IMG/VR virus record: IMGVR_UViG_3300045988_016904
From: a virus
Direction: 5' to 3' (one strand)
DNA: 38,264 nucleotides
Each line of letters opens with the position of its first letter. Position 1 is the first letter of the stretch. This document shows, in pieces, positions 1-38,264 of the stretch. The notes under the pieces are model-generated. The model did no database searches. It was not told the DNA's origin and was given only the letters and a program-made list of their open reading frames with translations. The position numbers and the translations under genes were made by a program.

Positions 1-99
1 CGAAAAACACGATACCGAGGGCTTGAAAAGCAGCAAGCCAAATTCAATATCATGTTTGCACTGGCAAATCTGATTCTTGCTGACAGACCCTGTCTGGCA
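1..99. repeat. 99-bp terminal direct repeat, identical to 38166..38264 (circular-assembly overlap)
   Basis: Base-by-base identity of the window start with the window end. The repeat lies inside one continuous transposase reading frame. Confidence 0.95.
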
Positions 100-105
100 G
101 CTTGA
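1..105 (+). CDS. IS5-family transposase, C-terminal end (continues 37293..38264 across the circular junction; stop TGA at 103..105)
   Basis: Frame 1 reads RKTRYRGLEKQQAKFNIMFALANLILADRPCLAA*. It is in frame with the ORF that starts at 37293. Confidence 0.9.
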   Translation, partial: RKTRYRGLEKQQAKFNIMFALANLILADRPCLAA

Positions 106-187
106 GTAAGTGCGCCTTTGCGGGCAAAAATTCAGAGGTTATCCACAGTTTTTACTTGGCACCTATTGTATAATGCGGATTTTGGTA

Positions 188-203
188 TTTATGCGGTGTT
201 GCC
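188..203. repeat. IS right terminal inverted repeat (IRR)
   Basis: 13 of 16 positions match the reverse complement of 37237..37252. Confidence 0.8.
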
Positions 204-299
204 TTAGGAATGAGTAGGAGTACAATTTCCAGCCGATATTACCGAGGGCTTCCCATTGAAAAAGTGCTTGCGAAGGAGAATTTGAGATGCCACGCTTAA
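204..299 (+). pseudogene. 3' fragment of the IS-disrupted phage gene (..LGMSRSTISSRYYRGLPIEKVLAKENLRCHA*)
   Basis: Removing the IS and one TTAG copy joins 36888..37236 in frame to 208..299. The resulting tail resembles the usual HTH-like C-terminus of this phage protein family. Confidence 0.8.
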
Positions 300-583
300 T
301 TGATGCAGAGGAATTGGAACTCCAATTTGATGTTTCCGACGAAGATATTATAGCAAAGGAGATAATCCGGAATGCCCCCACCGTGGATGCCGTCCCCGTG
401 GTAAGGTGCCGGGACTGCATTGAATTTGAGGAAATAGGCAAGTACCTAACCAACAAAGGAGGAACGCCATTTGGGTATTGCTATCATTGGCAATATGAGC
501 AGGGCATGTCCCCTAACGAGGTAGACGGCAATGCTTTTTGCAGTTATGGGGAGCGAAAGGTGGATGAAAATGGAAGAACTTAA
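287..583 (+). CDS. hypothetical phage protein (Cys-containing; VPVVRCRDC motif)
   Basis: 98-aa ORF whose start overlaps the stop of the disrupted gene. Its motif style is shared with the ORF at 35931..36227. Confidence 0.6.
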   Translation: MPRLIDAEELELQFDVSDEDIIAKEIIRNAPTVDAVPVVRCRDCIEFEEIGKYLTNKGGTPFGYCYHWQYEQGMSPNEVDGNAFCSYGERKVDENGRT

Positions 584-5253: not shown

Positions 5254-5256
5254 CAT

Positions 5257-6474
5257 TTGCTTACCCCCTCTTACCTACTCCACGCCGTTGAACCGGCGGA
5301 GGATATCGCGGAAGAACTTCACCAGAATATCATGAATCGGATTATAGAGCGCATTCTAATTCGGTTCGGGCGGGGTGATAATTATATTCTTACTCCGCTG
5401 GATAAATACCAAATTGAAACGCTTCAACAGCTGGGCTATCTCTTGGGCGACATCCAAAAAGAGATTGCAAAAGCTACCGGGAAAATGCAAACGGAAATCG
5501 CGGCAGCTATGGAGGATGCCGGAGTAAAGGCGCTGGGATACGATGACGCGATATACCGAGAAGCTGGGCTAAATCCAACGCCGCTTGTGCAATCGCCGTA
5601 TCTCCAAAAGCTTATGCAAGATACATATGAGCAGACGCTTGGAGAGTGGAAGAACTTCACGGCCACAACCGCCGATGCGGTGCAGGAGACATTTACACGG
5701 CTGTGTGATGAAGCGTATATGAGAGCCATGTCCGGGGCAATTTCGCCCGTGCAGGCCGTCAGGGAGGCCGTGGAGCGGCTTGTTTCCGATGGGGTATATA
5801 TCAAGTATACCAAAATCGGGAGCGACGGAACAGAGCGCGTACACAAGGACACAATAGAGGTTGCCACGGCGCGGGCGGTACGCACCGGCATTTCTCAAGG
5901 TTCGGCTAGAATACAGCTTGCGAGAATGGACGAAATGGGCGTAAATCTTGTAATCGTTTCTTCCCATCTGGGAGCAAGGCCGACGCACGAGGTGTGGCAG
6001 GGGAAAATCTATAGCCGAGTACCTAGCACAGAATACCCCGATTTCGTTTCTTCCACCCAATACGGCACGGTAACGGGGCTGTGCGGGGCAAATTGCCGCC
6101 ACAATTTTTCAGTGTGGTTCCCCGGGCAAGGCAACCCGTTTGAGGATTACGACAGCGAGGAAAACAAAAAGCAGTACGAGAAAGAGCAGAAGCAACGCGC
6201 CATGGAGCGGAGAATCAGGGATACAAAACGGAAAGTTTTGGGACTGAGGACGGCCATGGACAAGGCGCTATCCGAGGAGGAACGGGCTGGCTTTGAAAAG
6301 GAGTACCGCAAGAAATCCGCTTTATTGCAGCAGCAGAATGAAGCATACAACGCTTATTGCAAGGAAACCGGGCAGAAAAAAAGAGCGGACAGAATCGCGA
6401 TAGCCCTATGGAATCGCAGTGAAGCCGCAAAAGCGACCGCTGCGGCTAGGAAGTACAACGCGGAGAAGGAATAA
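5257..6474 (+). CDS. minor head / head morphogenesis protein (SPP1 gp7 / Mu F-like)
   Basis: Sits after the portal gene. Has a GANCRHNF motif and a charged C-terminal tail. TTG start. Confidence 0.7.
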   Translation: MLTPSYLLHAVEPAEDIAEELHQNIMNRIIERILIRFGRGDNYILTPLDKYQIETLQQLGYLLGDIQKEIAKATGKMQTEIAAAMEDAGVKALGYDDAIYREAGLNPTPLVQSPYLQKLMQDTYEQTLGEWKNFTATTADAVQETFTRLCDEAYMRAMSGAISPVQAVREAVERLVSDGVYIKYTKIGSDGTERVHKDTIEVATARAVRTGISQGSARIQLARMDEMGVNLVIVSSHLGARPTHEVWQGKIYSRVPSTEYPDFVSSTQYGTVTGLCGANCRHNFSVWFPGQGNPFEDYDSEENKKQYEKEQKQRAMERRIRDTKRKVLGLRTAMDKALSEEERAGFEKEYRKKSALLQQQNEAYNAYCKETGQKKRADRIAIALWNRSEAAKATAAARKYNAEKE

Positions 6475-6482
6475 TTGAATAA

Positions 6483-6520
6483 ATTGCCAGAGCTGATTTG
6501 TTTCAACTCTGGCAATTTTT
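6483..6520 (+). terminator. intrinsic terminator inside the head-gene block
   Basis: ATTGCCAGAG (6483..6492) pairs with CTCTGGCAAT (6507..6516), followed by TTTTT. Confidence 0.75.
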
Positions 6521-6528
6521 ATACACAT

Positions 6529-6600
6529 GCAGGCGGAAGCTGGGAGGGTCAGCTCCATTATTTCAATATGGGTTCGCGGGTTCAAACCCCGCCGCCTGCG
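6529..6600 (+). tRNA. tRNA-like element, possible tRNA-Glu(UUC), no encoded CCA
   Basis: Perfect 7-bp acceptor stem 6529-6535/6593-6599. D arm 6538-6541/6551-6554 with a GG-containing loop. Anticodon arm 6555-6559/6567-6571 has one U-U pair and loop ATTTCAA. T arm 6576-6580/6588-6592 has loop TTCAAAC. Atypical points: G at position 8 and no position-26 nucleotide. Confidence 0.5.
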
Positions 6601-6686
6601 TCATTTCTACCCCGCCGGAGGTTTATCCCGGCTCAATCCATTACCGCCGACGGGCGGTTGATAAATACGGTACAGGAGGATTTTTT

Positions 6687-7259
6687 ATGAAGAATATTGT
6701 TGAAATCTGCAAGGATTTCGGAATTGAAATTCCCGCAGACAAGCTCGCCGAATTCAACAAGGCAGTGGCAGAAAGCTATAAAACCGTTGCCGAATTCGAG
6801 AAAAAGGTAACCCGTCTCACCGAGGATTTGAACACCGAGAAGAAGGCCAAAGAAGCCGCCGAGACCACGCTCAAGGGATTCGAGGGGAAAGACTTTGACG
6901 CTATCGTGAAGGAGCGGGACGCGTGGAAACTCAAGCACGAACAGGCAGAGGCCACCTACAAGAAGGAGCGGGAAGACCGGGAATTCAACGAGCTTCTGGC
7001 CGGTGTGATTTCCGAAGCCAAAGGCAAGAACGCTAAGGCTATTACTGCGCTTCTGGATGTTGATGCTCTGCGCAATAGCAAGAATCAGAAAGAGGATATG
7101 AAAGCCGCATTGGATGCACTGCGCACCGATAGCGGATACCTCTTTGAAGATAACGGCGGCGCGGCGCGCTTCGATAATCCCGGAAATGGCGGAGGCGGCC
7201 AGCAAACAGACCTCAGCAAAATGAGTATGGCGGACTATATCGCCGCAAGAAAGAAGTAA
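6687..7259 (+). CDS. scaffolding protein (GP20-like)
   Basis: ATG after AGGAGG. Charged coiled-coil composition. Sits immediately before the major capsid gene. Confidence 0.75.
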   Translation: MKNIVEICKDFGIEIPADKLAEFNKAVAESYKTVAEFEKKVTRLTEDLNTEKKAKEAAETTLKGFEGKDFDAIVKERDAWKLKHEQAEATYKKEREDREFNELLAGVISEAKGKNAKAITALLDVDALRNSKNQKEDMKAALDALRTDSGYLFEDNGGAARFDNPGNGGGGQQTDLSKMSMADYIAARKK

Positions 7260-7274
7260 AGGAGTTTTTTATTT

Positions 7275-8165
7275 ATGGCAAATACGATTCTTACCCCCGA
7301 CATTATCGCCCGTGAAGCCCTTATGGTGCTGCGGAACAACGCAGTTATGGCAAATCTGGTACACCGCGACTATTCCAGCGAGTTTGTCACCGGTGTGGGC
7401 GATACCATCACCATTCGCAAGCCCGCAACCTTTACGGCAAAGGAGTTTGCCGGAACTATTTCGGTGCAGGATGCTACCGAAAACAGCGTTACCGTGAAAA
7501 TGGATAAGTTCCTTGATGTATCTTTCGCAGTCACCGCAAAGGAGCTGACGATGGATATTGCGAGCTTCTCCACGCAGTTCATTGTTCCCGCTATGCAGGC
7601 GTTCGCCGATAAGGTTGACGGTTATCTGCTTGGCCTTGCATCCGGTATCACCAACAAGGTGACGGCGACCACCGATATCAAGAACGACGTGATTGACGCG
7701 CGGGCATACCTCACCAAGTCTGCAACCCCGCTGACCGAGCGCCGGTTTGTGTACAACACCGATACCGAAACGAAGCTGCTGAAAACCGACCTGTTCATCA
7801 GCGCCGAGAAGGTGGGCGATGCGGGTACTGCGCTGCGTGAAGCGTCTCTTGGCCGGAAGTTCGGCATGGACTTCTACGTTGACCAGAACGCGGACACTGC
7901 GGGCGTTCTGGGACTGGCTTTCCACAAAAACGCTTTCGCATTCGTTACCCGGCCTCTGGCTCTGCCGCAGGGCGCGGCAAATGCAGCGATTGTGAACTAC
8001 GACGGTTTCGGCCTCCGCGTGGTGCAGGACTACAACATCACCACCAAAACCGATACCATTTCCATTGATATGATTTGCGGCGTGAAGACCCTGAACAAGG
8101 ATATGGCCGCGATCATTGCGGCGGCTGCCTCCAACCCCGGCGGCGGCACAAGTCAGGGGGGTTAA
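7275..8165 (+). CDS. major capsid protein
   Basis: 296 aa. N-terminal motif ILTPDIIAREALMVLRNNAVMANLVHRDYS is typical of a siphovirus coat family. Position also fits. Confidence 0.85.
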   Translation: MANTILTPDIIAREALMVLRNNAVMANLVHRDYSSEFVTGVGDTITIRKPATFTAKEFAGTISVQDATENSVTVKMDKFLDVSFAVTAKELTMDIASFSTQFIVPAMQAFADKVDGYLLGLASGITNKVTATTDIKNDVIDARAYLTKSATPLTERRFVYNTDTETKLLKTDLFISAEKVGDAGTALREASLGRKFGMDFYVDQNADTAGVLGLAFHKNAFAFVTRPLALPQGAANAAIVNYDGFGLRVVQDYNITTKTDTISIDMICGVKTLNKDMAAIIAAAASNPGGGTSQGG

Positions 8166-8179
8166 CCGGCTATAGCTCA

Positions 8180-8341
8180 ATGGCAAGCTATACGCAGGAG
8201 AGCCTTGAAAAACTGACAATACCGGAGATCAAGGCTCTTTCTGCGAAGCTGGGCTATAGCATCACAAAGGCCAAGAAAGCAGATATCACAGCAGAATTTT
8301 TGGAGCAGCAGGAGGCGGCGGCCAATGTATATCACGTTTGA
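8180..8341 (+). CDS. small HeH/SAP-like (Rho N-terminal-like) domain protein
   Basis: LTIPEIKALSAKLGYSITKAKKADI motif. Uses an internal ATG of ORF 8075..8341. Confidence 0.55.
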   Translation: MASYTQESLEKLTIPEIKALSAKLGYSITKAKKADITAEFLEQQEAAANVYHV

Positions 8342-8816
8342 GGATTATATACGGTGGTACTCCCCGATTGATGAAAACATCTATGAGCGGCTGGCAATAG
8401 AGGCTTGCCGTACAATGGATAAATATACAACGGGCATTGATAGCGTGCGGAAGCTGAAAACGGCGTTCCCCGTGGACGAGGATTCAGCCTATGCCGTGAA
8501 ATTTACCGCTGCTCAGCTGGTGAATACGCTGTACCAAATCTATGAGGCGGAACAGGCCGCCAACATGAGCAGAGGGTACATTGAAACCGAAAACGGATTG
8601 CAGCGGAAAATCATTTCCCGCGTGGAAGCCGGTAACGAGGCGATATCTTACATGGAGGGGCAGGGCAACACAACGGCAATAGATGTTGCTGTGAAGGATA
8701 CCGCCGCTAAGCGGAAAATGCTTTTCGATATCGTTCGCGACGGCCTGTCCGGCGTGGAGGACGCAAACGGCGTGAATCTTCTGTACATGGGCGTATACCC
8801 CGGAGGCTGCTTATGA
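8325..8816 (+). CDS. head-tail connector/adaptor protein (putative)
   Basis: Call is from position after the capsid gene and from size. Start overlaps the upstream gene. Confidence 0.55.
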   Translation: MYITFEDYIRWYSPIDENIYERLAIEACRTMDKYTTGIDSVRKLKTAFPVDEDSAYAVKFTAAQLVNTLYQIYEAEQAANMSRGYIETENGLQRKIISRVEAGNEAISYMEGQGNTTAIDVAVKDTAAKRKMLFDIVRDGLSGVEDANGVNLLYMGVYPGGCL

Positions 8817-9184
8817 ATACGGTTGCAAGAAAAATTTCGGTGCTTGGCACAGACTACATCATTCGGTTCGTGGAGCATGGGCAGGATGAATACATGGATA
8901 AAAACGGCTTTGCCGGATACTGCGACGCTGCGGCGCATGAAATCATTATTCTTCTGCTGAAAACTCACGACGAGTGGAAGGATGAACCGGAAGCGGCCAT
9001 TGATTTCAATCAGAAATGCACTCTTCGGCATGAGATTACACATGCCTTTCTTAATGAAAGCGGTTTGCAGTGGAATTCTCTTACCACAGATCAGGCATGG
9101 GCAAAGAACGAAGAAATGGTTGATTGGTTCGCCATTCAATCGCCAAAAATCTTCCGGCTGTTTCAAGAAATCGAGGCGCTGTGA
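8813..9184 (+). CDS. small HExxH (SprT/zincin-like) protein in the connector module
   Basis: TLRHEITHAF motif preceded by GYCDAAAHEIIIL. Confidence 0.55.
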   Translation: MNTVARKISVLGTDYIIRFVEHGQDEYMDKNGFAGYCDAAAHEIIILLLKTHDEWKDEPEAAIDFNQKCTLRHEITHAFLNESGLQWNSLTTDQAWAKNEEMVDWFAIQSPKIFRLFQEIEAL

Positions 9185-9624
9185 TGTACAAAAACACCGT
9201 TACCGTATTCAATCGCAAGCCCGGAGACCGTGGGAAAGGTGCTACGTGGTACCCCACCATCATTGAGAATTGCAATCTTAATGTAGATCGTGCCGCAATC
9301 CTTGCCAAGTATGGCGCGGAATCGAAAGATAGCGCATACGTAGGAATTCATTACCAGAAAAAAGATGGTGTAATCGATATCGCAGGGAAACGCCTGTTGG
9401 AGCCTAAAGAATGGGATGGAAACGAAGATTCCATTACGTTCAGCCCCACAGGCGATTTTTTCTGGAATGGTGAATGGGATGGCGGCATTGTGGCGGATTC
9501 CGACGAACGTTGGACGGATGAAGGATTCTACGCCTACATGAACCGCACGAAGGATAACGTATTCACAATTTCGTCTGTCTCCCGGCACTCCGTTATTCCG
9601 CTGGTTGAGGTATGGGGGAAATAA
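9184..9624 (+). CDS. head-tail joining / head closure protein (putative)
   Basis: TGATG-type overlap with the upstream gene. Call is positional. Confidence 0.5.
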   Translation: MYKNTVTVFNRKPGDRGKGATWYPTIIENCNLNVDRAAILAKYGAESKDSAYVGIHYQKKDGVIDIAGKRLLEPKEWDGNEDSITFSPTGDFFWNGEWDGGIVADSDERWTDEGFYAYMNRTKDNVFTISSVSRHSVIPLVEVWGK

Positions 9625-9625
9625 T

Positions 9626-10069
9626 ATGGCGCAGAAAATACACCACTTCAAGGGCTTCTCCATCATCGTGGATGGCGTGGACATTAAGGTGGATATGAGC
9701 CGGTTGGAGGGCAATTTTAACCGTGCGCAGTTCGCCCTTGATAGCGCCATTATGACTTCTATGGTTCCCTTTATGCCAATGCTGACGGGGCAATTCATCA
9801 ACGAAACAAAGGCCGCGTCTGCTGCTATCGCCGGTTCTGGGCAGGTGGTGGCGGGCGTAGCTCCTACCGGGCAATTTCTGTATGAAGGAAACGTGATGGT
9901 TGGTGAAAAATCCCGCTCTGCATGGGCTAAAAAGGGTGAAAAGAAGGTATCCACAGGAAAGAGCCTGACCTATTCAAACGGCAGGACTAGTCAATGGTTT
10001 GACAAGGCCAAAAGTAAAGACTGTGACAAGTGGGTAGAGCTGGTGAAAAAGGAGGTCGGCACTGGATAA
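9626..10069 (+). CDS. HK97 gp10-like tail completion / minor capsid-type protein (putative)
   Basis: Call is from position and size only. Confidence 0.5.
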   Translation: MAQKIHHFKGFSIIVDGVDIKVDMSRLEGNFNRAQFALDSAIMTSMVPFMPMLTGQFINETKAASAAIAGSGQVVAGVAPTGQFLYEGNVMVGEKSRSAWAKKGEKKVSTGKSLTYSNGRTSQWFDKAKSKDCDKWVELVKKEVGTG

Positions 10070-10569
10070 TGGACACACCGAAACCGATAAGCGTTGACGG
10101 CGAAGGATTTGAAATCCTGAAAGATGCCGTTGTAAAGCTGCTAAACCAATACCCCGGTCTGAATGGGCGGGTCATTTCTCGAAGTGACTTGTCTGAGGAC
10201 GGGGGTATTTCTATGGAGCCGGAAAGCGGTACGCTGGTGTACTCCGAGAAATCCGATATTGTCGGCAACATCCGGCAGGAATGCCAGTTCCCATTTTACG
10301 TGGTGTACCGCACCGATGCTACCAGCGAGTACGTGAAAGCCGGGACAAACGACTTCCTTGATAAGCTGGGCGCTTGGGCGTGCCGCGAGCCGGTGACGAT
10401 AGGCGGCAAGCTGTACCAGCTGGAAGCATATCCACCCCTTACCGGAAGCCGGAAAATCACAAAGGCCGTGCGCTTCAACTCCTATGCGCTCGAACCAAAC
10501 GAAAACAAAACGCAGGATTGGCTAATCCCAATCACTGTGAACTACACACACGAATTTACAAGGCGGTAA
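10069..10569 (+). CDS. tail terminator-like protein (putative)
   Basis: TAATG overlap. Sits immediately upstream of the major tail protein gene. Confidence 0.45.
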   Translation: MDTPKPISVDGEGFEILKDAVVKLLNQYPGLNGRVISRSDLSEDGGISMEPESGTLVYSEKSDIVGNIRQECQFPFYVVYRTDATSEYVKAGTNDFLDKLGAWACREPVTIGGKLYQLEAYPPLTGSRKITKAVRFNSYALEPNENKTQDWLIPITVNYTHEFTRR

Positions 10570-10589
10570 ATCCGCAGAAAGGAAAAAAT

Positions 10590-11126
10590 ATGGCTGATAA
10601 TCTGAGCTTTAATGTTGCCGATGGCGTTACCATTGCGCGTGAAACGCTGATTGCGAATCTGAACGTTGGCACTTCTACTGCTCCCGAGTGGGCGCCCGTC
10701 GGTATCCGCGTTTACAGCGGGCAGGAGGACTTCGACTGGCAGCGCGAAACCAATCAGGATATCATCGGCAACGCCTATTCCAGCATGAAAAAGCCCATCA
10801 TTACCCAGAGCTTTGACGGATGGGAAATCTCTGGCGGCGACAAGGCCGCTATCCAGATCTGGAATCAGGGCGTGAGAGACCAGAACCCGCAGGCAATGTC
10901 CAACAATGATATGCTGATTGTACATAAGTACGTGTACAGCGACGGCACCACGAAGTTCTTTGCAGAGCGTTACAAGGCGTGCGCCGTGGAAATCAGCAGT
11001 CTGGGCGGCGATGGCGGCGGCAATCTCACCATGCCTATCAATGTCACCTACGGCGGCGAACGGACTATTGGTTCCGTTTCGGTTGCGGACGGAGCGTTTA
11101 CTTTTACGGCTGATGGTACGGTGTAA
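10590..11126 (+). CDS. major tail protein
   Basis: 178 aa, between the connector genes and the chaperone/tape-measure genes. Confidence 0.7.
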   Translation: MADNLSFNVADGVTIARETLIANLNVGTSTAPEWAPVGIRVYSGQEDFDWQRETNQDIIGNAYSSMKKPIITQSFDGWEISGGDKAAIQIWNQGVRDQNPQAMSNNDMLIVHKYVYSDGTTKFFAERYKACAVEISSLGGDGGGNLTMPINVTYGGERTIGSVSVADGAFTFTADGTV

Positions 11127-11692
11127 TGGCCGCGTATGATCTCCCCACCTCCCTGCTTGTCGGGGAGGTGGCTTACCCCATTAACTACGGGTGGAAAAAT
11201 GCTATTGCCGCACTAGCTGAGCTGAGCGACCCCGAAAAAGGGAGAGCGGAAAAAGTCACAAACATGGTGTGCCGCATATTCCCTCAGTGGGCGCGGATTC
11301 CGTCAGCGGATATCCCGGAAGCGATAGAAAAGGCACGGTGGTTTCTGGATTGCGGCAGAGAACCGGACGGGAAGATTCGGCCTAAACTGATGGACTGGGA
11401 GCAGGACGCGGATATCATCATTCCGGCGCTAAATCAGGTGTCCGGGCAGGAAATCCGACTGTCCCCGGATATCCACTGGTGGACGGTGTACGGATGGTTC
11501 ATGAGCATTGATAAAGGCTTGTTCTGCACGGTGCTGAGAATCCGGAACAAACTTTCCACAGGCGAAAAGCTGGATAAATCCGAGAAGAAATTCTACCGCG
11601 AGAACCGGAAGCTTGTGGAGCTGAAAAACAAGGATACCGACGCAGTGCGGCAGGCACGGGAAGAAATCAAAGGCTTGTTAGGTGGTGGCTAA
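11126..11692 (+). CDS. tail assembly chaperone (Gp15-like)
   Basis: Sits directly upstream of the tape measure gene. No -1 extension ORF was seen. Confidence 0.6.
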   Translation: MAAYDLPTSLLVGEVAYPINYGWKNAIAALAELSDPEKGRAEKVTNMVCRIFPQWARIPSADIPEAIEKARWFLDCGREPDGKIRPKLMDWEQDADIIIPALNQVSGQEIRLSPDIHWWTVYGWFMSIDKGLFCTVLRIRNKLSTGEKLDKSEKKFYRENRKLVELKNKDTDAVRQAREEIKGLLGGG

Positions 11693-14600
11693 ATGGCTGA
11701 CGGACAGATTTTAATTGATTCTAAGCTTGATACGAAAGGCGTACAAAAAGGCGCTGACGAGATACAGGGGCTTTTTATCAAGACGGCGGAAACAGCAGCA
11801 AAGGCCGCCAACAACATTGAAAAAGCGTTTAAGAATACAAATTACAAGGACGCGTTTGAGAAGCTGCCAGCAAGCTATCAATCCGCATATGCCAAAATCG
11901 AAACGATTCGTGCAAACGATTCCCTGAGTGAGAAGCAACGGGCAAAGCAGATTGCTCAGGTGTATGAGGAACTGGGCTACGATCAGGAATCCGCAATGGA
12001 ACGCGCATGGGATGCGATTCAGTCCGATGCGGAAACCGGCTCACACCATATCATTGAAAACCTCTATGAGATTCAGGATGCGGCAGAAAAAACCGGAGAG
12101 GAAACCGAAAAATCCGGGGAAAAGGCCAAAGGTGCCGGAGACGCCTTCAAGGATATGTTCAAGGCGCACTTATCCGCCGAAGCCCTTATCGGTACGCTGA
12201 AAGCCATTGCAAGAGAGCTTGTAGAGCTTGGCAAACAGGCCGTTGCAGCGGCGGCAGACGTGGCCGCCTCTAATGCCCAGTTTGAGCAGACTTTTTCTGG
12301 CGTTGAGAAGGAAGCCAGAAAATCCCTGAATTCCATTTCCAAGGAAACCGGCATTACCGCAACGCGAATGCAAGGCTCCTTTACAAAGATTTTTGCTTTT
12401 ACGAAATCGGCCGGCGGCGATACGGAATCCGCTATGGATATTGCGTCCCGTGCGCTTCGAGCGGCTGCGGATAGCGCGGCGTACTACGATAGATCGGTAG
12501 AGGAAACTACAGAATCTTTGCTATCTTTCCTAAAGGGCAACTACGCTAATGATGCCGCTCTGGGAATTGCCGCCACGGAAACCACGCGAAACACCGCCGC
12601 AAACAAGAAGTATGCGAAATCTTTCCAAGAGCTTTCCGAAGCGCAGAAAGTCGATGTACTGCTTTCCATGGTGGAGGCTGGCAACGAAGCATCCGGCGCA
12701 ATCGGGCAGGCGGCGCGAGAGGCTGAGCAGTGGACGAACGTTACCGGCGAGCTTTCCGAGGCGTGGAAGCAGTTCCTAGCAAAAATCGGCACTCCAATTC
12801 TGGAAGGGCTTACCCCCATTATTCAGGGAATCACTAGCGCATTGCAAAGAATGTCTGAAACGGCCGCCTCCGCAGATCTTGCGGGCGACATGAAGGACTT
12901 CACCGATGCGGTGGATGCGGCAAACACCGAATATGAGGAATCCGAGCAGCTGATAGAGCATAACGCAATCAAGGCGGATTTGCTCAAGCAGAGGCTCGAA
13001 GAACTCGCCCCGCAAGTATCAACGTCGGCGGATGCCGCGAGGGAGTATGCAACCGTCGTTAATTTATTGAACGATATATACCCTGAGTTAAATTTACAAA
13101 TTGACGAGCAAACCGGACTGATTACCGCAAATAGCGATGCGCTTTTGGACAATCTGGATGTAATGAAGCAGCGGGCGCTTGTTGCGGCCAAGGAAAAGCG
13201 GTATTCCGCTATTCTGGAAGCGCAGGCGAAAGCCATGCTAGACGTTCAAGAGGCACAGTACGCCCTTGATTCCGCAACATATGATTATAAATCCACCCAG
13301 ACGCAGTTACAAAATGCGCTTGGAGTGACCACCGAGAAATTAGATGAGTTGGCCAGCATATATGAGACGTCAGGGTGGAATCAAGTTGCGCTTAGTGAGG
13401 AAAACCGAGAACTTCTAGCAACATATTCTGAACTTAGACGGGAAATACCGGCACTAACTCAAGAAATTGAAGGCGGGAACAATGCCATTGCCGCGCAAGA
13501 AACGGAACTTACCGAGCTAAGAAAAGCATTTGGCGATACCTCAGAGGGCGCAGGCCAGCTAACGGACGCTGAAAAAGAAGCCACCGAAGCCACAAGCGAA
13601 CTTACCGAGGAACAAAAAGCACTTGCCGAAGAATTCCAGAATGCTAAAGAATCGGCGGCAGATTCTTTGAATTCCACAACGGGATTATTCGAGAAGATGG
13701 GCAGCGTCAGCGCCACCTCCATTGCAAGCATCACCCAAAATCTGAACAATAACGCCACGGCTATTTCCACATACCACGAAAACTTACAGAAAGCCGTGGA
13801 TATGGGATATGCGGAGGAAGCTATTCGGCAGTGGGCGGACGGTTCCAAGGAATCTATGGAGATTGTTGCTGGTGCTGTGAAAGGTACGCAGGCGGATGTT
13901 GAAAACTTTAATGCTGCGTGGAGCAATTACACTTCGCAGAAAGACGTTGCATCTAGCACAATGGCGAGTATCGAAACTGGAATTGTTAACGTTGGCAACT
14001 CCGCTTCTGATTCTGGCGCGAAGATTACCGGCGAATTCGTGAACCCCACCACCGAAGGAATGGAATCAGTCCAGAAAGCCACTGAGGACATGGCCACCAC
14101 TGGCGCGGAGACGTTGAAAAGCAAGTGGGAAGGTGTAGGAAAATGGTTTGAGACTAACGTTGAATCGCCGCTCAAAACATCGATAGAAAATATCGGTACT
14201 ACGGTATCCGATACTCTTACCGCTATGCAATCGGACATAGAAAATATCGGTACTACGTTATCCGATACTCTTACCACTATGCAATCGGACAGCGAAACGG
14301 CGTGGAAAAATATGTACACAGAGGTTGAAAAGTATATTAATCAGATGCAATCCAAGATTAACAGTTTGCAGGGGAAGACATTCACCGTTACCATCAAAAA
14401 CGGCGCAAGCCCACGATCCGCTGTATCTGGAAACCCCGCCGCAGTTTCCCCGCAAGCTCTGTTTAGTTCGGATGCGGCTATGGGCATTCCCTACCTTGCA
14501 TCTGGTGCGGTAATTCCTCCAAACGCTCCGTTTATGGCCGTTCTTGGCGATCAGCGGAACGGCACGAATTTGGAAGCCCCCGAGGATTTACTCCGAAAAA

Positions 14601-14749
14601 TCGTGCGTGAGGAAATCGGAGAAATCAACATCACCACGGAGGTGAACTTCGAGGGAACTCTTGCGCAGTTCGTCCGCGCGTTGTATCCGGAGATCAAATC
14701 AGAAGCGCAGCGGCGCGGGACAAGCCTTGCTAAAGAGGTGATTATGTGA
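11693..14749 (+). CDS. tape measure protein
   Basis: 1018 aa, Ala/Glu-rich helical composition, position fits. Confidence 0.9.
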   Translation: MADGQILIDSKLDTKGVQKGADEIQGLFIKTAETAAKAANNIEKAFKNTNYKDAFEKLPASYQSAYAKIETIRANDSLSEKQRAKQIAQVYEELGYDQESAMERAWDAIQSDAETGSHHIIENLYEIQDAAEKTGEETEKSGEKAKGAGDAFKDMFKAHLSAEALIGTLKAIARELVELGKQAVAAAADVAASNAQFEQTFSGVEKEARKSLNSISKETGITATRMQGSFTKIFAFTKSAGGDTESAMDIASRALRAAADSAAYYDRSVEETTESLLSFLKGNYANDAALGIAATETTRNTAANKKYAKSFQELSEAQKVDVLLSMVEAGNEASGAIGQAAREAEQWTNVTGELSEAWKQFLAKIGTPILEGLTPIIQGITSALQRMSETAASADLAGDMKDFTDAVDAANTEYEESEQLIEHNAIKADLLKQRLEELAPQVSTSADAAREYATVVNLLNDIYPELNLQIDEQTGLITANSDALLDNLDVMKQRALVAAKEKRYSAILEAQAKAMLDVQEAQYALDSATYDYKSTQTQLQNALGVTTEKLDELASIYETSGWNQVALSEENRELLATYSELRREIPALTQEIEGGNNAIAAQETELTELRKAFGDTSEGAGQLTDAEKEATEATSELTEEQKALAEEFQNAKESAADSLNSTTGLFEKMGSVSATSIASITQNLNNNATAISTYHENLQKAVDMGYAEEAIRQWADGSKESMEIVAGAVKGTQADVENFNAAWSNYTSQKDVASSTMASIETGIVNVGNSASDSGAKITGEFVNPTTEGMESVQKATEDMATTGAETLKSKWEGVGKWFETNVESPLKTSIENIGTTVSDTLTAMQSDIENIGTTLSDTLTTMQSDSETAWKNMYTEVEKYINQMQSKINSLQGKTFTVTIKNGASPRSAVSGNPAAVSPQALFSSDAAMGIPYLASGAVIPPNAPFMAVLGDQRNGTNLEAPEDLLRKIVREEIGEINITTEVNFEGTLAQFVRALYPEIKSEAQRRGTSLAKEVIM
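14183..14290 (+). repeat. 54-bp tandem duplication inside the tape measure gene (IENIGTTxSDTLTxMQSD x2)
   Basis: Units at 14183..14236 and 14237..14290 differ at 3 positions. Confidence 0.9.
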
Positions 14750-15129
14750 TTGTTCAATTTCTTCTCGATGGCGTGGAATACAATGTTTCCGTGCTATCGC
14801 TGAGCCGTTCTTTCTCCATAAAGGATGCCATTGCAGCAAGCACTACGCAGGATGGGAACATCTACCGCGACCCAATCGGCACGTACTACAATTACACAAT
14901 GGTGGTAGCTGATAAAGGCGATATGGCGGCGCTGGACGCTTTCTGGGAGGCGATAAGCCAACCGGTAGCGTCTCATGTATGCGTATTTCCCTACAACCAG
15001 CAGACGCTTACACAAAGGATGTACGTCACTGCTGGGACTCAGCCTATCCGGCGGCTGCACAGCAACGGCGTGGAGTGGGGAGAAATCAAGATCAACTTTA
15101 CGGCGCAAGCCCCGAAGGTACTTGTATGA
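14746..15129 (+). CDS. distal tail protein-like (putative)
   Basis: Sits after the tape measure gene and overlaps both neighbours. Confidence 0.5.
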   Translation: MIVQFLLDGVEYNVSVLSLSRSFSIKDAIAASTTQDGNIYRDPIGTYYNYTMVVADKGDMAALDAFWEAISQPVASHVCVFPYNQQTLTQRMYVTAGTQPIRRLHSNGVEWGEIKINFTAQAPKVLV

Positions 15130-16793
15130 GCTTAGAAATAAACTACATTGATGCGCCTGAGGGCGCGCAGGAAAAAATGATAGCGGAAAGCACCGGGGGA
15201 AATGCGTTTTCCTCCGATGCGCTCATAGCATCCGGCGGCAAAAGCAAGGCATACGCCACGTTAGAGCCGGGACTGTGGAGGCTGGACGGGACTAGAAAAC
15301 TGTTGCCGGATGACCCACACCCCGGCTGGTGGAGCGTGGCACGTTCCGGCGAGAATGGGCAATTTGAAAGCCCCCCTGTAATCACCATTACATTTCCGGT
15401 GCCGTACAGTTCTACGGGCTTTACATTCACATTTTCTCCCGCCACGGAACAGTGGTGCAGTGAGATTCATGTATCGTGGTATAACGGGCAAACGCTTATC
15501 GTGAATCAGGATTATTCCCCGGATAGCGCAAACTGGACTTTGCTGGAAACAGTGGAAAGCTTCGATAAAATCGTAATCACCCTGAAAAAAACAAACCACC
15601 CCGGCCAATTTGCCAAGATTCAAAGAATTGAAGTTGGCCGGACAATTTTACTTGGGGCGAATGAAATAAAGTCTGTGCGGCTTGTGAATGAAATCGACCC
15701 CTCCATCTGTGAACTCACGGTGGATACAATGTCGGTGAACATTTACGACCCGCAGAACAGGAGCTTTTTACCGCAGGAGAACCAGCGAGTGGAGCTGTAC
15801 AAGGATGGGAAACTGAGAGCTACCCAGTATATCAAATCCAGCACACGAAAAGCGGAATCCAATTACACCATTGAGGCACAGTCTGCAATCGGCTTGTTGG
15901 CGGATGAATTTCTTGGCGGGATGTATTACCAGCGGCCACTTTCCGAAATGGTGGCCGATATCCTGAGCAACTGGGAATTTGAAATTGCCCCGGAGTTTGC
16001 AACCTCTACCGTCACCGGGTATCTGCCTGTATGCTCCCAGAGAGAAGCGCTACAGCGTGTAGCGTTTTCTGTGGGAGCTCTTGTATCCACGCAGGATTCC
16101 ACAAAAATACGGCTGTTGCCCATCCCGTCCGCCGTTACGCAGAGGTTTCGGGAATCGGAAATCCTTCTTGGCGGCAACGTGCGAACCGCGCCGAGATATG
16201 CCCGGGTGGAAGTGATAGCCCACACATACACCCAGCAGGATGTAACGGAAACGCTGATGAACGAGGAAGAAGTAAACGGAGAGAATGTGCTTTTCACCTT
16301 TTCTGCTCCCCATTACGATTACGTGATTGAGGGCGGAGAAATCACTGGTTCCGACGTGAATTGGGTGAAGATAACGGCCAGCGGAACGGTAAAACTCACA
16401 GCGAAAACGTACCTGCACACTACTCGGACGTTCACGAAATTAAATCCGGAAGCGACGGCGAAGGAACGCGGCAATTATGCCTCCGTATCGGAATGCACCC
16501 TTATTCACAACGGCAATGCTCTAGAGGCCGCTGAACGCCTATATTCGGCCAAACAGCGGCGGCAGACAGCAACTCAAAAGGTGGTTATTTCGGGGCAGGA
16601 AGCGGGAGATATAGCCTCAAGCCTTACACCATGGGGCACAATTACGCGCGGCTTTATATCTTCCATGGATAGCACACTGACGCAAAACGGGCACACCGCG
16701 TCTATCCAGATTCAGGGTATTGAAGTAACGCTTGAATCGGTGTGGCCGTATTCCGGCGAGATTTATTCTGGTGGAATGGAGGTGCTCTATTGA
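15126..16793 (+). CDS. tail-associated baseplate / Tal-like protein
   Basis: 555 aa from an internal ATG with an ATGA overlap. Call is positional. Confidence 0.6.
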   Translation: MSLEINYIDAPEGAQEKMIAESTGGNAFSSDALIASGGKSKAYATLEPGLWRLDGTRKLLPDDPHPGWWSVARSGENGQFESPPVITITFPVPYSSTGFTFTFSPATEQWCSEIHVSWYNGQTLIVNQDYSPDSANWTLLETVESFDKIVITLKKTNHPGQFAKIQRIEVGRTILLGANEIKSVRLVNEIDPSICELTVDTMSVNIYDPQNRSFLPQENQRVELYKDGKLRATQYIKSSTRKAESNYTIEAQSAIGLLADEFLGGMYYQRPLSEMVADILSNWEFEIAPEFATSTVTGYLPVCSQREALQRVAFSVGALVSTQDSTKIRLLPIPSAVTQRFRESEILLGGNVRTAPRYARVEVIAHTYTQQDVTETLMNEEEVNGENVLFTFSAPHYDYVIEGGEITGSDVNWVKITASGTVKLTAKTYLHTTRTFTKLNPEATAKERGNYASVSECTLIHNGNALEAAERLYSAKQRRQTATQKVVISGQEAGDIASSLTPWGTITRGFISSMDSTLTQNGHTASIQIQGIEVTLESVWPYSGEIYSGGMEVLY

Positions 16794-17209
16794 TGGCGCT
16801 GGTAACAGATAGAACGGAATTGGATACTTTGCTGGGCAACGAAAAAGGACTGTACAGCTACACGGACTTGAACCGTGTGGAAACGGCAGTTTCGGAAATA
16901 GTGGAGCAATTCCCGTCTTTGGGCGTTTCCGAGCAGTTAACGGTAAAAACGGACTGGGGATTGCCGGGGGACTTCTCCGCCGCAGAATGGCCGGTAGTGT
17001 CCCAGATGGCGCGATATCTGGGTAACGTGGCAAAGATAAAGAGCATTTTTATTATTTCAAACGCCCTGCCGAATACGATGGATAACCTCACATGGCATGG
17101 AGCAAACAGCATTGAAAAAGTTTTGGAAATCGCGGTTTCCAGAATCGCGGGAATTAAGCAAACTTATCGTTACAGCGGTGAAATATACGCTGGGGAAGGA
17201 GCCTTATGA
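16793..17209 (+). CDS. tail-associated hypothetical protein
   Basis: TGATG-type overlap, within the tail tip module. Confidence 0.5.
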   Translation: MALVTDRTELDTLLGNEKGLYSYTDLNRVETAVSEIVEQFPSLGVSEQLTVKTDWGLPGDFSAAEWPVVSQMARYLGNVAKIKSIFIISNALPNTMDNLTWHGANSIEKVLEIAVSRIAGIKQTYRYSGEIYAGEGAL

Positions 17210-17688
17210 CGGATAGAGTACCGGGAATGCCGGGGCAGTACAAGCTTACAATGAATGGGCAGACGCTGAGCGTGACGATTGAGCGAGACGACCAACCGCT
17301 TGTGGAGGGCACGCCCTACAATAAAGCGTCTGTTCTGCCTGATAGCCTAGCAAATCAGTTGTGCCCCAACGTAATCAATCCCACCCCGGCGGATGCGCTC
17401 AGCGGATTGAGCAAAAAGAAATACGAGGTGACGTTGCTTGCATCCGGCTGGACTTCAAATTCCGGCGCGTACAAGCAGAAAATCCTCCTGAGTTCCATTC
17501 TGGGCGATAGCAACGAAAGCGTGAAAAGCTGGCCTATTTATTCCGGCAACGTGGACACCGACAGCGCTATACGGGATGCTTGCGCAGCGATTACATACGC
17601 GAAAACGGAGGCCGGAAGTGTAACGTTTGTGTGCTTGGATGAAGCCCCTGAGGTGGATATTCCTGTTATTGTGGAGGTGAGCAGGTAA
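17206..17688 (+). CDS. tail fibre-associated hypothetical protein
   Basis: Start overlaps the upstream gene. Call is positional. Confidence 0.5.
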   Translation: MTDRVPGMPGQYKLTMNGQTLSVTIERDDQPLVEGTPYNKASVLPDSLANQLCPNVINPTPADALSGLSKKKYEVTLLASGWTSNSGAYKQKILLSSILGDSNESVKSWPIYSGNVDTDSAIRDACAAITYAKTEAGSVTFVCLDEAPEVDIPVIVEVSR

Positions 17689-22695: not shown

Positions 22696-22725
22696 ACACG
22701 CCCTACCAATCAAGGCAGGGCGTGT
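22696..22725. terminator. bidirectional terminator shared by the moron cassette and the integrase gene
   Basis: ACACGCCCT pairs with AGGGCGTGT. T-rich on the - strand side, CTTCTGGTTT on the + side. The integrase stop codon lies in the loop. Confidence 0.65.
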
Positions 22726-24371
22726 CTTCTGGTTTGGATGAAAACCATTCCCACAACGGTAATTGTGTTCGGATTTGCGTCCAATGGTGACCCAACGCGC
22801 CCTATATCCGAACACGGGGATACTGCCGGAGTAGGAACGCGGTATGTCTTTGATGGGATCTGCGTCAGCCGGTAGGCGGTCACAAATTTCAGGAATCCCG
22901 GCTCGTCATCGTAAACGGTGACGGAATTTACAAGCATTTCAATAAGCATGGCTTTCTGGGTTTCCAGCGGAACCGCATTTTCCCTTACCGCTTTCAGATA
23001 AACCACGACAGATTCCTTTGTGAGCGGAATCACGCCGCGTTCTTCATCGGATAGTTGTGTAGACAGTCCCTTTTTCTGGGCTTCTAATTCGGCAAGCCTT
23101 TCCACAATAGCGTCCGGCGCAACGGAAGCACATTCAAGTGCTTTCGTCAGATTGCGGATTTTATTTTCAATTTCAGAAATCTTTTTGCGTATGACCGGAA
23201 TCTGTGTATTCTTCTGAATGTCTTCCTCTGACTGCTGGGCGGCTACTTCTGCCACAAATTCGATAATTTCGTCTGTCAGTACGTCAAGAGCGTCCTGAGC
23301 CACCACATCTTCCAGCCAGTCCTTCGGGACTGGCTTTTTGTCGCATAAGCGGGCCTTCTTTCTATTGGCGCAGGAATAATAATTGTAAGTCTTCCCGCCT
23401 TTTCCTCTGCCGCACTCTCCCACCATGGGAGCGCCGCAGTGACCGCAGAAAATTTTCCCCGACAAAAGATACGGCACCTTCGCCTTACCTCTAGCTGGGG
23501 CTTGCTCGCTGGCTTTCAGTCTGGATTGTACAGCCCGCCAAAGCTCATCGGATATAATTCTGGGGACGGCGTTGTCTGTGCGAACATCGTCAAACTTGTA
23601 AACCCCGATATATTTTTCGTTCCGGAACACGTTCTTAAAACTGGACTTGTTGAATTTCGTTCCCCGCGTTGTCCGGTATCCGCGGGCGTTGAAATCGTCG
23701 CAGATCGCGGCCACGGTATCGCCGTCTGCATACCGGCGAAATGCTTCCTCCACCAAATGGGCAGTCATGGGGTCGATTTGCAGGCGCTTGTCTACGACAG
23801 TGTATCCTAGCGGTGTAGTGCCGCCTGTACTGTTCCCTTTTCTGGCTGTTTCGCTCATGCCGCGACGTACCTTCTGGGACAGCTCCAGAGAATAATACTC
23901 CGCCATACCTTCCAGCAGGGCTTCCAGAATCACACCCTCCGGGTTCTTGGAAATGCCCTCTTTCGCGGATTCCACGTTACAGCCGTTCTTACGGAGCCGC
24001 ATGCGGGCAATGGCGCTGTCTTCCCGGTTCCGGGCAAATCTGTCCAGTTTGTAAACCAAAACGGTTTTCCATGACGATCTGGCGCTGTCAGCAAGCATCT
24101 GCTGGAACGCTGGCCGCTTGTCCATGCTTGCGTGGGCGGAAATCGCCCGGTCAACATAAATGGCGGCAACCCGGTAGCTGTGGTGCTTGCAATAGGCTAT
24201 CAGCTCCCGGAGCTGCCCTTCGATGGACTGCTCTGTCTGCCGGTCGGAACTGTAGCGCATATACAGGCAGCAGACCGCCTCGCAGTCCGAGGAAAGAACG
24301 GAGGGGTTATCTGCAAACTGCTGTCTTTCCTCCGGCGTAAGAGCCGATAGATCAATTGGTATTGTTTGCAT
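22710..24371 (-). CDS. int: large serine recombinase (integrase)
   Basis: Resolvase-type N-terminus with YMRYSSDRQ (catalytic Ser). Recombinase domain, zinc ribbon (CGHCG...C..C) and coiled coil. Confidence 0.9.
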   Translation of the reverse strand: MQTIPIDLSALTPEERQQFADNPSVLSSDCEAVCCLYMRYSSDRQTEQSIEGQLRELIAYCKHHSYRVAAIYVDRAISAHASMDKRPAFQQMLADSARSSWKTVLVYKLDRFARNREDSAIARMRLRKNGCNVESAKEGISKNPEGVILEALLEGMAEYYSLELSQKVRRGMSETARKGNSTGGTTPLGYTVVDKRLQIDPMTAHLVEEAFRRYADGDTVAAICDDFNARGYRTTRGTKFNKSSFKNVFRNEKYIGVYKFDDVRTDNAVPRIISDELWRAVQSRLKASEQAPARGKAKVPYLLSGKIFCGHCGAPMVGECGRGKGGKTYNYYSCANRKKARLCDKKPVPKDWLEDVVAQDALDVLTDEIIEFVAEVAAQQSEEDIQKNTQIPVIRKKISEIENKIRNLTKALECASVAPDAIVERLAELEAQKKGLSTQLSDEERGVIPLTKESVVVYLKAVRENAVPLETQKAMLIEMLVNSVTVYDDEPGFLKFVTAYRLTQIPSKTYRVPTPAVSPCSDIGRVGSPLDANPNTITVVGMVFIQTRRHALP

Positions 24372-36744: not shown

Positions 36745-36901
36745 AAGGCAAGAACACCGTCAGCGCCTTAACGCTAGAATTGCTTACGCCGCCGCAATTG
36801 AGCGGTGGGCGAGGAATCAGCCGTCACGCATTCGGTTCTTTGCCGTCAGACGCTGGCTGAAAGAGATGCCGAGGAGGGAGGATTTTTATGCGGCTGATTG
36901 A
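36737..36901 (+). CDS. small basic hypothetical protein (54 aa)
   Basis: ATG overlaps the upstream stop. Below the ORF-track cutoff. Confidence 0.35.
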   Translation: MSERQEHRQRLNARIAYAAAIERWARNQPSRIRFFAVRRWLKEMPRREDFYAAD

Positions 36902-37236
36902 GGGGCGATCATTTTACAAAGAGCCGTGGTACGGTAGTTATCATTCGATGATGGACAGATGTTACAGGAAGAAAGCACATAATTACCCCCAGTATGGCGG
37001 ACGTGGTATTGCTGTTTGCGAAGAATGGCATGATATCGAATTGTTTGAGCAATGGGTAAAAGGCTCAAAATATAAGCCGGGGATGTCGTTGGAACGAATA
37101 AATGTCAACGCTGATTATTCTCCTGAAAATTGCACTTGGGCAACAGCAAAGGAACAAGCGAATAACCGGAGAAACACGGTGAGAATCAAGTACATGGGCG
37201 AAAACCGCACTGTAGGAGAGTGGGCAGAGGCTTTAG
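36888..37236 (+). pseudogene. 5' part of a phage gene (YGGRGI...SLERINVNADYSPENCTWAT family, HNH/AP2-like DNA-binding) interrupted by the IS
   Basis: The family signature is intact up to EWAEALG. The track ORF 36888..37280 then runs into IS sequence. Confidence 0.8.
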
Positions 37237-37252
37237 GGCAATACCGCACAGA
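37237..37252. repeat. IS left terminal inverted repeat (IRL)
   Basis: 13 of 16 positions match the reverse complement of 188..203. Confidence 0.8.
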
Positions 37253-37292
37253 AAAAGGTGCCAAATACCGCCGAGTGTGATATAATAAACTT

Positions 37293-38264
37293 ATGAATAA
37301 ACAGATGACAATTTCCGCATTCAGCGATGAACTGGCGCAGGTGCGGACGAAGAAGAAAGAATTTCTCAGTCAGATCGAGCGGATCGTCCCGTGGGGAGAA
37401 TGGCTTGCCATGATTCAGCCGTGCTATTACAAAGGAGAGCGCGGCAACAAACCCTATCCGCTGGAGATCATGCTCCGACTGTATCTGCTGCAAAACCTCT
37501 ATGACCTGAGTGACGAGGCAACAGTGGCAGAGGCAATCGACAGCCGCGCATTTTCGGAGTTCTGCAGCGTTGATTCCAGCAATCAGGTTCCGGACGGGGA
37601 TACTCTCGGCCGTTTTCGGAATCTGCTGATCCGGAACGGACTGCAGGAGAAGCTGTTTGCTCAGGTGGTAGCAGCGCTCATGGAGCGTGGCCTCATTCTG
37701 AAAAAGGGTACCATCGTAGATTCCACCATCATTTCTGCCCCATCTTCTACCAAGAATAAGGAGAAGAAACGAGACCCGGATGCCCATCAGGTCAAGAAGG
37801 GTAATACATGGCATTTTGGATATAAGGCACATATCGGCGTGGACAAGGACAGCGGACTGGTACACACAGTGAAAGCCACAGCGGCAAATGTACACGACGT
37901 TTCGGAAACATCGAAATTACTGACCGGAGAAGAAGAGGCTGTCTACGGCGACAGCGGCTATCTGGGAGCCGGTAAGAGAGAAGATGCTGTCGTCAGGAAC
38001 AAGTCGGGTCACAGAATCAAGTATAAAATCAACCGTCGTCCTTCACAGGTAAAGAAGCTGAGCAAAAGCGGACAGTACGCCGCCAAGAAAGCAGAGCACG
38101 CAAAGTCTTCTGTCCGAGCAAAAGTAGAGCACGTATTCGGTGTCGTTAAAAAGCAACTGCATTTCCGAAAAACACGATACCGAGGGCTTGAAAAGCAGCA
38201 AGCCAAATTCAATATCATGTTTGCACTGGCAAATCTGATTCTTGCTGACAGACCCTGTCTGGCA
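37293..38264 (+). CDS. IS5-family DDE transposase (open at the window end; full length 325 aa when circularised)
   Basis: Strong resemblance to E. coli IS5 transposase: RPYPLE-like KPYPLEIMLR, IVDSTIISAPSSTKNKEKKRDP, KKGNTWHFGYKAHIGVD, YGDSGY, VEHVFG, RYRGL. Confidence 0.9.
   Translation, partial: MNKQMTISAFSDELAQVRTKKKEFLSQIERIVPWGEWLAMIQPCYYKGERGNKPYPLEIMLRLYLLQNLYDLSDEATVAEAIDSRAFSEFCSVDSSNQVPDGDTLGRFRNLLIRNGLQEKLFAQVVAALMERGLILKKGTIVDSTIISAPSSTKNKEKKRDPDAHQVKKGNTWHFGYKAHIGVDKDSGLVHTVKATAANVHDVSETSKLLTGEEEAVYGDSGYLGAGKREDAVVRNKSGHRIKYKINRRPSQVKKLSKSGQYAAKKAEHAKSSVRAKVEHVFGVVKKQLHFRKTRYRGLEKQQAKFNIMFALANLILADRPCLA
38166..38264. repeat. 99-bp terminal direct repeat, identical to 1..99
   Basis: Exact identity. 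Consistent with a fixed-length assembler overlap on a circular contig. Confidence 0.95.

Follow-up and report, generated by a model that had tools for sequence, protein, structure and literature searches.

An IS5-family insertion sequence at a probably tolerated site in a complete-looking temperate siphovirus-type phage genome

Insertion sequences (IS) in temperate phages are uncommon but well known. A previous survey by Leclercq, Gilbert and Cordaux in 2012 found 92% of surveyed phages to be IS-free and 8% to carry IS, with an average of one IS copy per 346 kb, and its authors expected an IS to survive in a phage only where the insertion does no harm and the genome stays within the packaging limit of 105-106% (PMC3429520). 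They also predicted that metagenomes would reveal many short-lived neutral IS insertions in phages, and they proposed a 'dynamic reservoir' of phage-borne IS, which could not be measured there (PMC3429520). Here we analysed the IMG/VR virus record IMGVR_UViG_3300045988_016904 (the window; the whole stretch of 38,264 nucleotides, to which all coordinates refer unless another contig is named), in which an earlier reading of the letters alone (the original prediction) had noticed an IS5-like element within a phage gene and had remarked that IS are uncommon in phage genomes, in agreement with the 92% reported above. We are highly confident that the window holds a true insertion of an active IS5-family element, which most likely took place in the prophage state, at a tolerated site of a temperate phage. 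Together with two contigs of related phages (L164 and L167), the window is an instance of the insertions predicted by Leclercq et al. and not an exception to their pattern; the finding is correct and ordinary. It is a textbook-clean case, and a datable one, of an IS inserting into a temperate phage where this is tolerated, with donor-type chromosomes, empty sites and two sister insertions all in public data, and it is usable as a positive control for the detection of IS in phages in metagenomes. It adds a small data point on phage carriage of IS between gut Firmicutes and changes no concept.

A target preference for YTAR is established knowledge of the IS5 family. IS5 of E. coli and the element described here share a single open reading frame (ORF) for a DDE transposase of 325-326 aa, 16-bp terminal inverted repeats (IRs) starting with GG, and a 4-bp YTAR-type duplication. 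They differ in length (about 1.2 kb versus 1,132 bp here), in the sequence of the IRs and in the host, which here is a Firmicute (Oscillospiraceae), and 2 of 10 sites of the identical copies of this element are TAAG and TAAA, not YTAR. Viable temperate phages with an IS5-family passenger have been described in P1 (AF234173, with IS5) and P1-like RCS47 (FO818745, with IS5D and IS1); these are phage-plasmids of Enterobacteria of about 94-115 kb, whereas here the element is carried by a siphovirus-type phage of 38 kb that encodes an integrase and belongs to a group of gut Clostridia phages seen in metagenomes only. When the element was compared with GenBank phages, only distant (about 70%) partial matches were found, including IS5 of P1 and RCS47. 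The 'IScream' phages of gut Clostridia carry IS30 at both ends and have no integrase (PMC12823448). The window resembles them as a gut Clostridia phage associated with a bacterial IS, but its IS is a single internal copy of the IS5 family and it encodes a serine integrase of its own; a reading of the 'IScream' type was rejected, there being no flanking IS30 pair and a large serine integrase at 22710..24371.

Structure, family and empty sites of the insertion

The window is a circular assembly with an exact 99-nt end overlap, the non-redundant circle being 38,165 bp, and the circle was opened at an arbitrary point that falls within the transposase gene. The element therefore runs from 37237 to 38264 and then from 100 to 203, 1,132 bp in total, and annotators should be aware that the circular closure of this contig falls within a mobile element. 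Its sole ORF encodes an intact 325-aa transposase, its imperfect 16-bp IRs are identical at 13/16 positions, and its ends are defined by comparison with 10 copies, identical or nearly so, that stand in different contexts. The features of the element and of the gene that it interrupts are as follows.

1..99, + strand: assembly overlap, equal to 38166..38264, inside the transposase gene
36888..37236, + strand: 5' part of the interrupted 146-aa gene (116 codons and 1 nt), PHROG 3377, E 3.7e-52
36888..37280, + strand: truncated fusion ORF of 130 aa, with 117 native residues and 13 read from the left end of the IS
37233..37236, no strand: left TTAG copy of the target-site duplication; a single TTAG stands at the empty sites of relatives
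37237..37252, + strand: left terminal IR, GGCAATACCGCACAGA; same end in all identical copies and in the 82-90% related Oscillospirales copies
37293..38264, + strand: transposase ORF, residues 1-324; last codon and stop at 100..105 across the assembly junction
100..203, + strand: 3' end of the IS, with the end of the transposase ORF (100..105) and the non-coding right end
188..203, - strand: right terminal IR, reverse complement GGCAACACCGCATAAA; identical copies elsewhere
204..207, no strand: right TTAG copy of the target-site duplication
208..299, + strand: 3' part of the interrupted gene (completes codon 117, then the last 29 codons and stop), second helix of the C-terminal helix-turn-helix

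Removal in silico of the element and one TTAG joined 36888..37236 to 208..299 and gave a 441-nt ORF of 146 aa, exactly as the original prediction had written it; the coordinates of the element, the imperfect IRs and the TTAG duplication had likewise all been placed correctly. A reconstruction unsupported by homologues had been named there as the result that would speak against an insertion, and the opposite was observed, intact homologues of identical sequence being plentiful. A scan of IMG/VR with the 146-aa product returned 13 contigs with an uninterrupted gene at 99-100% identity, 7 of them with 0 mismatches in 441 nt and the others with 1-3, and in all 13 a single TTAG lies exactly at the insertion point. 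An exact-protein look-up placed the intact product on 720 contigs, ten of which were fetched from ENA (7/10 identical over 441/441). Intact copies identical over 441/441 were thus found at 14 loci (L010, L012-L015, L017 and L018 from IMG/VR; L151, L153-L157 and L159 from ENA), each with a single TTAG. At two of these, L012 from the scan and L155 from the look-up, the empty site is 100% identical over 1,641 nt (600 + 441 + 600), and the site is crossed by continuous alignments of 1.9-2.8 kb at 98.4-99.6% in six assemblies. The empty-site contigs derive from many samples. By the same kind of look-up, the exact 130-aa product that spans the junction (P0019) is on record on 4 contigs, the longest of 40,629 bp. 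Because neither the gene halves nor the IS show any substitution relative to other copies, the insertion is, on this comparison, very recent, and the recent date first proposed from the undecayed gene halves holds.

The transposase matched the NCBIfam model NF033581 'IS5 family transposase' with 334.5 bits (cut-off 140) over profile positions 1-284 of 285, and Pfam DDE_Tnp_1 and DUF772 with 98.5 and 65.9 bits. It was 44% identical over its full length (E 2e-92) to E. coli IS5 InsH, the sequence of which was taken from phage RCS47, and D143 (VDSTII), D220 (GDSGY) and E279 aligned column for column with InsH, as did the R275-x3-E279-x6-K286 signature. By this alignment both the predicted DDE catalytic triad and the R-x3-E-x6-K arrangement of the IS5 family (IS5 group) are present, and the IS5-like transposase with DDE motifs of the original prediction is borne out. 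Judged from its sequence, the element is an IS5-family (IS5 group) insertion sequence, in which every testable defining feature was found (profile match, DDE triad, terminal IRs, 4-bp duplication and indirect evidence of transposition). With only 44% protein identity to InsH it is distinct from IS5 and apparently an unnamed IS; the closest copies in representative genomes are those of Pseudoflavonifractor sp. MSJ-30 (90% nucleotide identity) and Angelakisella massiliensis (89%).

Copies of the element in chromosomes and in related phages

The exact transposase sequence is present on 143 contigs in the exact-protein look-up. At ten places that were fetched, seven copies were identical over 1132/1132 and three had 1-3 mismatches (99.7-100%), each flanked by its own perfect 4-bp duplication: CTAA three times, CTAG, TTAA twice, TTAG, TAAG and TAAA. 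TAAG and TAAA are exceptions to YTAR, TAAG being one site on two contigs (L161, L165); the TTAG of the window and most of the other copies fit YTAR, as had been proposed. Apart from the site shared by L161 and L165 all contexts were different, which gives at least 9 distinct sites for identical or near-identical copies, and empty-site alleles are known for three phage insertions and one chromosomal gene. As read from these copies, the element is currently active and mobile.

Bacterial contigs of 0.2-1.44 Mb carry several of the copies, and a single contig of 1.44 Mb holds two. The cdaA product beside one copy was 100% identical, over the covered 95% of its length, to a protein named from an Oscillospiraceae metagenome-assembled genome (MAG), and 87% identical to one from Faecousia. 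Related copies of 82-90% nucleotide identity, with the same ends and mostly with YTAR duplications, were found in Pseudoflavonifractor, A. massiliensis (at least 6 related copies), Faecousia and other gut Oscillospirales, and the records from which the intact phage gene takes its name are those of an Oscillospiraceae MAG and of Caudoviricetes. The element is, to judge by these contexts, a live IS of gut Oscillospiraceae with multiple identical copies in the chromosomes of uncultured members, and identical or near-identical copies of the IS, which the original prediction had proposed to look for in the host chromosome, were met on chromosome contigs of Oscillospiraceae, the putative host family.

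Of the ten fetched copies, two belong to phages of the same group, in which the identical IS occupies other sites; these phages come from other samples. At L167:2445-3576 the duplication is TTAA, the flanks are 95-96% identical to the window, and a 145-aa gene that stands ahead of terS and terL begins 27 nt downstream of the copy. At L164:2445-3576 the duplication is CTAA, and the copy has a 131-aa gene on one side and a resolvase-type recombinase gene on the other. For both insertions the empty site is known from relatives. The IS is absent from all 44 IMG/VR relatives that were found with the interrupted, HNH-like gene. These alignments indicate that the phage group has received the same IS on at least three occasions and that each insertion is a rare variant. 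That the phage group is a working shuttle for the IS among gut Oscillospiraceae is a tentative and rather doubtful reading, which we keep open because a 100%-identical element entered related phages at three sites, because one carrier assembles as a complete circle with its essential modules open, and because identical copies are spread over many metagenomes. If true, the group would concretely exemplify, at the scale of metagenomes, the proposed 'dynamic reservoir' of phage-borne IS.

Some of the other copies stand in contexts of their own. At L162:2445-3576 (ENA ERZ24879769 contig_1234_polypolish, 1.44 Mb), a CBASS-type defence operon is interrupted by a copy with 3 mismatches and a CTAA duplication, which separates a Prok-E2_B ORF from a ThiF ORF; excision of this copy restores one open frame of 552 codons, a Cap2-like E2-E1 fusion, which adjoins SMODS/DncV-like cyclase, JAB and Cap15-like genes. 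In A. massiliensis NZ_LT629945.1 (L058, L059, L060), copies of 89% nucleotide identity are paired in the same orientation about 255 nt apart, and many copies in this genome have unequal 4-bp flanks, which suggests IS-mediated rearrangements. L161 and L165 (ENA ERZ28615479 and ERZ27280955), from two samples, share one site at which the IS with TAAG has SSB and CxxCxxCC-domain genes as neighbours, and this site may belong to another mobile element carrying the IS.

The interrupted gene and the carrier phage

PHROG 3377, which the interrupted gene matched with E 3.7e-52, carries the label 'HNH endonuclease'. No Pfam HNH model matched the product at E <= 0.01, and its C-terminus gave a sub-threshold Pfam Sigma70_r4 match only. 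A 19-member alignment of the product contained no conserved His, and an invariant Arg (R70) stands where the first His would be expected, before a conserved 'I/xD..Y.P.NC.W' block. A sequence search of the PDB gave no match, and a fold search of the PDB with a confident AlphaFold (AF2) model of the product (pLDDT 88.6) gave no significant one (best E 0.21). 'HNH nuclease' was rejected as a firm name on these grounds, with no catalytic His, no Pfam HNH match and no PDB match by sequence or fold, and we treat the product as an HNH-labelled accessory protein of putative DNA-binding type; annotators should be warned that the label is not backed by catalytic residues, and also that the 130-aa ORF of the window is a truncated fusion product. 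The AF2 model places the insertion point in the turn of a helix-turn-helix at the C-terminus, with helix 109-116 before it and helix 120-128 after it.

Among relatives the gene is present, deleted or absent. The complete relative G001, which has direct terminal repeats (DTR), is without the gene, 39 nt replacing 660 (G001:C1:3393-3433); seven IMG/VR contigs (L046-L052) carry a 303-nt in-frame deletion of it; and in L167 another gene occupies the slot. For this reason loss of the gene is probably tolerated, and with the gene probably dispensable the insertion would be tolerated as well, as Leclercq et al. would expect of insertions that persist in phages (PMC3429520). The slot of the HNH-labelled gene is polymorphic (window 36761..37236 + 208..391; L010-L022, L046-L052, L150-L159, G001). 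Copies of the gene, where it occurs, share at least 99.3% identity, but in the 600 nt on each side identity falls to 80-90%, so that the gene forms an island of conservation in a mosaic region, which would fit either a gene moving between phages (homing-like) or one under strong selection.

The window encodes TerL, an SPP1-type portal, a minor head protein, scaffold and tape measure, as well as the large serine integrase, a RecE-like exonuclease, a PAPS-reductase-like protein and a methyltransferase. Every module tested was present and open (TerL, portal, head, scaffold, tape measure, integrase and recombination genes), and one IS copy only is found in the window, which thus reads as a complete-looking temperate siphovirus-type phage genome. 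A megablast of 20 kb of the phage against GenBank phages gave no match. The phage group appears strongly mosaic, because the early and regulatory region is common to the IMG/VR relatives at 92-100% but window positions ~3,900-17,500 (head and tail module) had no nucleotide match in five complete relatives (G002-G006). The window with its IS measures 38.2 kb against 40.9-51.0 kb for the complete relatives, a comparison that says little because the head genes differ.

The following features of the phage lie outside the element or across its right end.

22710..24371: large serine integrase, phrog_95, E 1.9e-117
199..226, + strand: promoter-like site across the right junction, -35 TTGCCT in the IS end and -10 TACAAT in the phage flank, 9/12
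287..583, + strand: 98-aa phage gene downstream, which overlaps the interrupted gene's 3' end and has its own AAGGAG ribosome-binding site

The 98-aa gene, which had no PHROG match, also follows the intact gene in relatives. Strong polarity on the downstream genes is not expected, because the IS is oriented in the direction of phage transcription, no terminator-like site was found on its + strand, and the next gene has its own ribosome-binding site. The promoter-like site at the right junction is weak and no better than chance (1.2 sites matching at 9/12 are expected in 700 bp), and is put forward as a hypothesis only.

Proposed history, alternatives and expression signals

We propose that a single-ORF 1,132-bp IS5-family element with a YTAR-like 4-bp target transposed into a temperate siphovirus-type phage, most likely while the phage was resident as a prophage in a gut Oscillospiraceae cell. 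Its target would have been a TTAG within a small accessory gene directly upstream of the late and packaging genes, where the turn of the C-terminal helix-turn-helix is encoded, and the interrupted gene would now end as the 130-aa truncated fusion product. The phage is probably still functional, with the IS as a passenger, because the hit gene is dispensable and the IS is co-oriented and without a terminator-like site on that strand.

Several points weigh against this history. The insertion is judged from comparative sequence evidence, the 130-aa product on 4 contigs is the only other record of the identical junction and is known by look-up, and a 30-mer of the junction had no match in JGI metagenome contigs or IMG/VR within the records open to the search. 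The carrier was read from its sequence, its packaging and infectivity being putative, and the host link reaches the family level only. No phage DNA was found in five genomes with related IS copies, and a portal search of 401 sampled Oscillospirales genomes gave only matches of 34-43% and no such prophage.

An assembly chimera, in which a chromosomal IS repeat was threaded into an IS-free phage circle and the circular closure was spurious, could be suspected from the 99-nt closure within a repeat-type element and from the multiple copies of the IS in bacterial contigs. We consider it extremely improbable. A repeat-induced chimera cannot yield exact IS ends, a 4-bp duplication and perfect restoration of a gene, whereas here both junctions are internal to the contig, the exact IS ends are joined to phage sequences that are adjacent in relatives, the TTAG duplication arises by transposition only, and excision perfectly restores a known gene. 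Moreover, a de Bruijn assembler requires real 99-mers over each junction, the break lies in the middle of the IS and not at its borders, as expected of an unbranched circular path, and the junction-spanning 130-aa product is on 4 contigs, one of which is longer than the window.

A real insertion might instead mark decay, the window being a crippled or cryptic prophage or a circle that is not packaged, and the phage no vehicle for the IS. Accumulation of IS is typical of decaying prophages, the packaging of this phage is putative only, and the window of 38.2 kb is smaller than the complete relatives (40.9-51.0 kb). We regard decay as unlikely: all modules tested are present and open, the window holds one IS only, the hit gene is dispensable in complete DTR relatives, and the circular assembly suggests excised or replicating DNA. 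Much less probable still is that the IS was co-opted by the phage, either as mobilisation machinery, as with IS30 of the 'IScream' phages, or as the donor of a promoter to the late genes that selection has favoured. The recurrence of the same IS in the phage group, the weak promoter-like site with its -35 in the IS end and its -10 in the flank, and the precedent of phage use of IS30 (PMC12823448) would be in favour of co-option. However, the IS is single and internal and not one of a flanking pair, a large serine integrase is encoded by the phage itself, the site is IS-free in close relatives, the three phage insertions differ in position, and the junction promoter match is at chance level; co-option is thus largely refuted by the anatomy of the locus.

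Within the passenger element, one further site may bear on expression of the transposase.

37258..37286, + strand: transposase promoter-like site GTGCCA-17-TATAAT with TG before the -10, consensus match only, 10/12

Its -10 hexamer TATAAT ends at 37286, 6 nt ahead of the ATG at 37293, and no Shine-Dalgarno sequence precedes this ATG (positions 37281..37295). Because the promoter spacing puts the transcript start, about 7 nt past the -10, on the ATG itself, the transposase mRNA may be leaderless.

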